Below are positions 1,071 through 1,972 of a stretch of 11,358 nt of DNA, piece by piece. Positions within the stretch are counted from its first letter, which is position 1, and each line of letters begins with the position of its first letter. The position numbers were made by a program, and so were the translations under genes. The stretch lies in NCBI RefSeq assembly GCF_003334355.1, contig NZ_QOWP01000054.1, one strand, 5' to 3'. The notes beneath the pieces were generated by a model that was given only the letters and a program-made list of their open reading frames with translations, searched no databases and was not told the origin of the DNA. This DNA comes from Escherichia coli. GTDB lineage: Bacteria > Pseudomonadota > Gammaproteobacteria > Enterobacterales > Enterobacteriaceae.

Positions 1071-1972
1071 GCAAGCTTGCTGGCAGTCTCATGAAAGAAC
1101 AGGGGCTGGTCAGCTGTCAGCCGTTGACCCTCCGGTACAGGCATGGCAGTCATGAACTTGTAGCTATCCTAAGAACTTGAAGGGCGCTTAGCTGTGACAC
1201 AGCTAAATCAAGTATGGTGACGTGACCTATATCTGGACTGGTAAACGATGGGGATACCCGCTTACGCGAGAGCAATAAGTGGCTGGCCACCATTCTCGAT
1301 ACAAAACTCTGCTGAATAGCAGCGATTTTCCCAGCGTGGTGCGTCTTTTGCATTTTACTGGTTCTGAGTTATCAATTATCTGTTCACTAATGACTACTCT
1401 AAAAAGTTGTATCAATTTAAGTGATATAGGGAGTCCGGAGATTCACCCTTTTTGGTGATGAAGTTAACAATACCGCCAATTGCCTGTGAACCGTACAGTA
1501 CGGAATATGGACCTTTCACTACCTCAACACGCTCCAGCGCAGACTCATCTATCAACAGTCCCACACCATAATTATCTCCGGCGCGCTGATAAGTTACCTC
1601 CTGACCATCAATGAGAATTAAAACACGGGAGGATGCTTCGCCACGAATGCGGATTTGTTTACGGCCTGCCAAGGAGTTGTCTGTTATCTCTACTCCGGGG
1701 ATGTCCTGCAAATTATCGGCTATGGAGGCATTGGTGGAGTTCTGCAATGTTTGTTGGTCAATAACCTGTATAGTCGCCGGGCTTTCCCAAAGGTTGCTTG
1801 CCGAACGATTCGTGGTCACGACGAGCGTCTCTTCGTTGCTGATTTTTGTTTCTGAAGAAGTTGCGGTTGCAGTAGAAACTATCCCAGAAATGCATAATGA
1901 CAGAGTGGAAAGGATATAAATTCGACAAGGTATATTATATAACATTTCATCCCTCATTAATACAAAGTACAA
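1071..1972 (-). pseudogene. yoeA: TonB-dependent outer-membrane receptor remnant (yoeA-like; hemin/siderophore/colicin receptor family), interrupted by IS2
   Basis: Minus-strand ORF 1412..1945 (from the ATG; the track gives a TTG at 1972) has a signal peptide MLYNIPCRIYILSTLSLCISGIVSTATA, a TonB-box-like ETLVVTT and plug-domain motifs (RIRGEASS, LIDGQEV, ERVEVVKGPYSVLYGSQAIGGIVNFITKK). It stops after about 177 aa, where a beta-barrel should follow. 1071..1411 has stops in all frames and abuts the IS2 end. The yoeA name rests on synteny with K-12 as recalled. Confidence 0.75.

Follow-up and report, generated by a model that had tools for sequence, protein, structure and literature searches.

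A 19-bp perfect palindrome in an IS911-like transposase remnant of Escherichia coli, probably a by-product of sequence decay

Introduction

Imperfect inverted repeats can be made perfect by intramolecular template switching during replication, and hotspots of such quasipalindrome-templated mutation have been described in thyA of E. coli and in rII of phage T4. The insertion sequence IS2 has been reported to integrate close to DNA with intrinsic curvature (PMC3299598). The promoter of yoeA carries a cluster of 12 Fur boxes, the strongest predicted in the K-12 genome, and binding there was confirmed by gel shift (PMC2189734).

The locus described here lies in an E. coli contig (NZ_QOWP01000054.1) analysed over a stretch of 11,358 nucleotides, called the window below and numbered from its first letter. 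An earlier note, drawn up from the letters of the window alone, had pointed to a 17-bp perfect palindrome within what it took to be the remnant of a receptor gene next to IS2, and had offered a former operator, a recombination site or chance as its origin. We compared the site with intact relatives, with other E. coli genomes and with random expectation.

Results

The window is E. coli chromosome and was 100% identical to strain PSS-12, the only strain in which the junction between IS2 and its flank (1070/1071) was found in one piece. The genes cobU, cobS, cobT, ldtA, tRNA-Asn, nac, cbl and yeeO follow downstream, which places the window at the cobUST edge of the region called CP4-44 in K-12. 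The PGAP annotation of PSS-12 was carried over to the window (window position equals L001 position minus 9441) and combined with our own searches to give the following map.

1..1070, plus strand: right-hand part of IS2 (open reading frame list; PGAP 'IS3-like element IS2 family transposase')
154-1059, plus strand: IS2 OrfB/InsD reading frame (open reading frame list)
1071..1259, plus strand: IS911-family (IS3 family) OrfB pseudogene remnant (PGAP, NF033516, tblastn, identity to IS911)
1188-1206, no strand: perfect 9+1+9 palindrome TTAGCTGTG-A-CACAGCTAA (inverted-repeat scan, alignments with IS911 and ISEc52)
1260..1445, minus strand: diverged IS2-like left-end relic (blastn against IS2)
1445..1945, minus strand: TonB-dependent receptor pseudogene, yoeA-like, an N-terminal plug-domain fragment without the C-terminus (PGAP, L001 10886-11386; K-12 yoeA)
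7049-7121 (minus), 9457-9529 (minus) and 11278-11350 (plus): tRNA-Asn genes, asnV and its neighbours (Rfam, identical scores of 72.6 bits)

The 17-mer TAGCTGTGACACAGCTA was present at 1189-1205 without mismatch and in a single copy in the window, and the end of IS2 at 1070 was confirmed by a match to the pattern of its right inverted-repeat tip (IRR) that ends at this base. The repeat is indeed perfect over 17 bp, but one more complementary pair on each side brings its true extent to 19 bp (1188-1206). Its assignment to a receptor-gene remnant proved mistaken: the site lies in a transposase pseudogene, labelled by PGAP at 1076-1257 as 'IS3 family transposase, frameshifted, incomplete', and the receptor fragment is found further on, at 1445-1945, in minus orientation. 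The palindrome has no receptor homology, 1071-1259 being IS911-like and 1260-1445 IS2-like, and since the receptor fragment begins at 1445, the palindrome is ~240 bp outside it, past the truncated 3' end of the receptor and ~750 bp from the receptor promoter. The stretch from IS2 to the receptor, which the earlier note had described as frame-closed, consists of two stacked insertion sequence relics and holds no receptor sequence. The local map is thus corrected to show two older relics between IS2 and the receptor fragment.

The IS2-like relic at 1260-1445 is colinear with IS2 at ~70% identity (blastn matches of 118/168 and 25/28). In the lineage of the window the last ~13 bases of its inverted repeat are missing, and the whole tip is found in three other E. 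coli loci (L010 at 5690-5724, L013 and L014). It carries no PGAP annotation. The IS911-like remnant and the IS2-like relic also occur together on four large IncF/IncI plasmids of E. coli and on some chromosomes. There the pair adjoins aspA-dcuA, not the receptor fragment (L006, which is plasmid NZ_AP022088.1 at 1020-1409; L010; L014), and this position suggests that the two were moved or recombined as a block.

Two further inverted repeats were seen in the window. One, a strong repeat at 2151-2191, lies upstream of the receptor promoter region and consists of 18-bp arms around a loop of 5 nt (CCACGGACCGCACTCTT-gacat-AAGAGTGCGGTCCGTGG); no run of T follows it on either strand. The other, with 12-bp arms, lies at 7012-7039 between ldtA and a tRNA-Asn gene and is probably a terminator.

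The remnant that contains the 19-bp palindrome corresponds to about residues 70-139 of an OrfB of 289 amino acids; it runs through three frames, is interrupted by stops and small deletions, and breaks off after GKRWGY. Queries with OrfA and OrfB of ISEc52 (tblastn) matched it in pieces over three frames, interrupted by in-frame stops and deletions, with the last match ending at OrfB residue 139 of 289. Strain L73, which lacks the IS2, carries the whole remnant (L002 3497-4193), running from an IS911-type orfA (MKKGNFSAEFKRES...) through orfB to ...GDVTYIWTGKRWGY, and this full remnant was 84.7% identical in nucleotides to IS911 of Shigella dysenteriae over 692/697 bases. A 65-residue reconstruction around the site matched the NCBIfam profile NF033516 (transpos_IS3) with an E value of 2.3e-8 at profile positions 173-234 of 369; the score falls short of the full-length cut-off, since the query was only a fragment. 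The same reconstruction was 73% identical in amino acids to the proteins of ISEc52 and IS911. Colinear OrfA/OrfB homology that runs across the palindrome places the remnant in the IS911 group. Its frames are broken, the rest of the catalytic domain is gone and the right end is replaced by the IS2-like relic. The three frames with stops, the end of OrfB near residue 139 of 289 and the lost right end together indicate a pseudogene remnant and not an active insertion sequence.

Among the matches listed by a distant blastn search of plasmids, phages and E. coli genomes, the closest relatives around the site were 75-77.5% identical, and nothing above ~77.5% other than copies of the remnant itself appeared among these matches from the plasmid, phage and E. 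coli collections. A further 40 E. coli records in the band of 80-90% identity are probably partial matches. Relatives this distant imply that the element from which the remnant descends is absent from the records searched.

Read in the former orfB frame, the palindrome is TTA GCT GTG ACA CAG CTA and encodes L A V T Q L. The codons for NQVW follow, then a 5-bp deletion and then GDVTYIWTGKRW, which lies about ten codons after the site and is, in the IS3 family, the segment in which the first catalytic Asp of the DDE transposase is found. The corresponding sequences of intact relatives were as follows.

IS911 (three copies): TTCGCCGTGACCGAGCCAA, FAVTEP, 5/9 arm pairs
ISEc52: TTCGCCGTAACGCAACCAA, FAVTQP, 4/9 arm pairs
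Klebsiella IS911-like element: TTCGCCGTAACGGAACCAA, FAVTEP, 3/9 arm pairs

Intact relatives carry TTC GCC GTG ACC GAG CCA (FAVTEP), a weak quasi-palindrome. The dyad was not conserved, with 3 to 5 of the 9 arm pairs present in five IS911-family comparators, and the perfect form was absent from every intact relative examined (IS911, ISEc52 and three others). The earlier note had looked to intact homologues for the case against a special site. There the site is ordinary, non-palindromic coding sequence, but the homologues are IS911-family transposases and not receptors. Compared with IS911, the window differs at 5/19 positions, two of the changes being synonymous third-position substitutions and the others F>L, E>Q and P>L. 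This fraction (26%) matches the divergence of 25.6% in the ~90 aligned bases that flank the site (binomial P = 0.56). The Gln codon is common to ISEc52, so at least one of the bases that make the palindrome may go back to an ancestor that was still functional.

When the window was shuffled 500 times with its dinucleotides preserved, perfect inverted repeats with arms of 8 or longer and a spacer of 0-1 turned up in 31% of the shuffles (mean 0.37), and arms of 9 or longer were reached in 8.4% of 1000 shuffles (mean 0.089). The analytic expectation from base composition was 0.083 per window, or ~34 per 4.7-Mb genome, and several palindromes of equal or greater length were present in the other E. 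coli DNA that was compared. The 19-bp palindrome is no rarer than chance allows. Of the origins offered by the earlier note, chance is the one borne out by the shuffles, the analytic expectation and the imperfect dyad of the intact relatives.

The 192-bp remnant was found in 508/5426 complete E. coli genomes and in four plasmids, all at least 99% identical. With copies this alike, conservation and covariation are uninformative in either direction. The exact 17-mer occurred in two unrelated genomes (a Legionella and an Acidimicrobiales MAG) among 100,044 species representatives; the flanks, compared for the MAG match only, were unrelated. No copy was present in the K-12 stretch compared. In other genomes the remnant was cut at or near the site by IS2, without replacement.

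Taken together, these results indicate that the palindrome is very probably without function, a by-product of the decay of a dead insertion sequence. An equally non-functional alternative, which we consider unlikely, is that an IS911-type quasi-palindrome was 'perfected' by template switching, in which a single event copied one arm from the other after one or two ordinary substitutions. IS911 is already paired at 5/9 arm positions, and all five differences make pairs while none breaks one, but a perfect palindrome by definition shows pair-making changes only, and their number equals the local divergence. Both arms are affected, the left at positions 3 and 6 and the right at positions 12, 13 and 17, so a single template switch would be insufficient without earlier point changes. 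Position 13 (C, in the Gln codon) is the base common to ISEc52 and may have been inherited from the functional parent, and intermediate alleles were absent among the 508 genomes.

A second dyad also bears on template switching. The sequence TTCTCGATAATCGAGAA is a perfect 8+1+8 palindrome at the old orfA stop codon, outside the window (L002 ~3791-3807; also in L009, and in L010 at 3791-3807), and it differs from the quasi-palindrome TTCTCGATAATCGGGAA of IS911, which has one mismatch, by one G>A change. The full remnant therefore carries two perfect palindromes, this one and the 19-mer. We mutated IS911 at random in 20,000 runs with the substitution number and spectrum of the remnant and with the indels kept. 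One or more palindromes appeared in 3.4% of runs when arms of 8 or longer were counted and in 0.4% when arms of 9 or longer were required; two or more with arms of 8 or longer appeared in 0.015%. The last figure favours template switching, but the window was chosen for its first palindrome, so that the fair figure for the second is ~3%; this excess (P ~0.03) also takes IS911 as its starting point, although the true parent is another element, and local divergence varies. We regard it as a weak hint of a contribution from template switching.

A second alternative is that IS2-type transposases prefer the palindrome, or the shape of the DNA around it, as a target or for recombination, which would agree with the reported preference for curved DNA (PMC3299598). 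In some genomes the match to the remnant is lost at window 1198, and in 45 complete genomes the right end of IS2 abuts ...TAGCTGTGAC at 1198|1199, 1 bp from the dyad. All 45 share one identical junction, which may represent a single event, and their IS2 is in the opposite orientation with unrelated DNA on its other flank. Ends of IS2 or IS2-like elements were mapped in seven strains and defined seven distinct sites, listed below.

L002 3583-87: in the remnant, duplication CCAAA
L002 3631-35: in the remnant, duplication AACTG
L002 3952-56: in the remnant, duplication GCAAG
window 1071: in the remnant, this window, duplication GCAAG
window 1168-72: in the remnant, duplication CCTAA
window 1198: in the remnant, flank after GTGAC
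window 1640-44: in the receptor fragment (K-12, GmM062), duplication GCCAC

Six of the sites lie in the ~700-bp IS911-like remnant (L002 3583-4128, up to window-equivalent 1198) and the seventh in the receptor fragment. The IS2 of the window entered at the half-site of another small palindrome, GCAAG|CTTGC, which speaks for this reading, but only one of the seven mapped insertions touches the 19-bp palindrome, the rest being scattered over ~1 kb, and a 'graveyard' of pseudogenes gathers insertions without any site preference. Recurrent independent breakpoints, as expected of a recombination site, were not seen at the dyad. A dyad-specific target is thus very improbable, and the pattern is more like that of a pseudogene patch in which insertions are tolerated, or of a regional preference of IS2. 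A perfect 16-bp palindrome, CCAGCAAG|CTTGCTGG, also spans the junction between the IS2 tip and its target (window 1068-1083). Without IS2, as in strain L73, only GCAAGCTTGC is palindromic, so the end of IS2 extended this palindrome by chance.

The least probable of the alternatives, and a most implausible one, is that the palindrome is a protein-binding operator, left over from the receptor gene or the insertion sequence or in current use: a perfect dyad of 19 bp resembles, in general form, the site of a dimeric repressor, and this symmetry is all that speaks for it, against its place in former transposase coding sequence, far from the receptor promoter, the imperfect dyad of intact IS911-family elements and the searches that follow. 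The promoter scan gave no promoter-like site within 170 bp, the nearest being on the minus strand at 1403-1375. Fifteen uncurated operator consensus strings (CRP, LexA, FNR, Fur, LacI, PurR, Cra, TrpR, TyrR, ArgR, GalR, FadR, lambda, 434 and IHF) gave no convincing match, the best fits having 2-3 mismatches in 8-10 specified bases. The known regulatory sites of the receptor, a Fur cluster (PMC2189734), are at its promoter, which lies beyond the receptor fragment as seen from the palindrome and several hundred bases away. The earlier suggestion of a former operator is accordingly set aside.

An AT-rich stretch (…AATAATTATCATT…) was observed upstream of the receptor start, at window ~1975-2080 on the minus strand. 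Of the six promoter-like matches found in 1000-2300, five fall in this stretch, four of them on the minus strand, and the stretch probably corresponds to the cluster of 12 Fur sites that has been reported for yoeA (PMC2189734). When the window was searched strictly with the Fur 19-mer consensus, no match with up to 3 mismatches was obtained.

An intrinsic terminator or a structured RNA at the palindrome was rejected. The RNA fold around the site had an energy of -11.7 kcal/mol against -10.2 +/- 2.4 for shuffled sequences (z = -0.61), the terminator scan gave no terminator-like match at the palindrome, and Rfam gave no match there, its sole matches in the window being the three tRNA-Asn genes.

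Discussion

The palindrome is ordinary, and the region that holds it was already annotated as an IS3-family pseudogene. We infer that no protein or process uses the site, and the candidate 'operator' can be removed from further attention. The following history would account for the observations. An IS911-family element would once have stood beside the TonB-dependent receptor gene at the edge of the CP4-44/cobUST region, and would have lost its 3' half to an IS2-like element. The remnant may then have gained frameshifts, stops and deletions before it was hit again by IS2, at 1070/1071 in this strain. Five substitutions in the course of this decay would happen to make both arms of the site complementary.

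A more eventful reading, in which the remnant and its dyad are an IS2 integration hotspot with the palindrome as one entry point, or a record of template switching with two perfected dyads in 700 bp, is in our estimate an unlikely one. Template switching, if it did take place, would alter how the palindrome arose and not what it does. Since IS2 has entered the patch repeatedly in different E. coli lineages, the patch could serve as a natural data set for target choice by IS2 or for quasipalindrome mutation.

The site resembles the quasipalindrome hotspots of thyA and rII in that an imperfect repeat with a short loop in the ancestor-like sequence is perfect in the derived one. It differs from them in that both arms have changed, intermediate alleles are lacking and the changes do not exceed background divergence, so that the mechanism is no more than a possible one here. 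The likeness to OrfB of IS911 and ISEc52, which belong to the IS3 group of the IS3 family, is closer, the alignment being colinear and including the segment NQVW...GDVTYIWTGKRW. Unlike those elements, the remnant is dead: it carries frameshifts, in-frame stops and deletions of 18 bp and 5 bp, it is truncated, and IS2 lies inside it. With yoeA and CP4-44 of K-12 the window shares its neighbourhood (cobUST, ldtA, asnV, nac and cbl) and a receptor plug fragment broken by mobile elements. The two differ in where IS2 entered: in K-12 it lies inside the receptor fragment, with the duplication GCCAC at window-equivalent 1640-1644, whereas in the window it lies in the IS911-like remnant, at 1070/1071.
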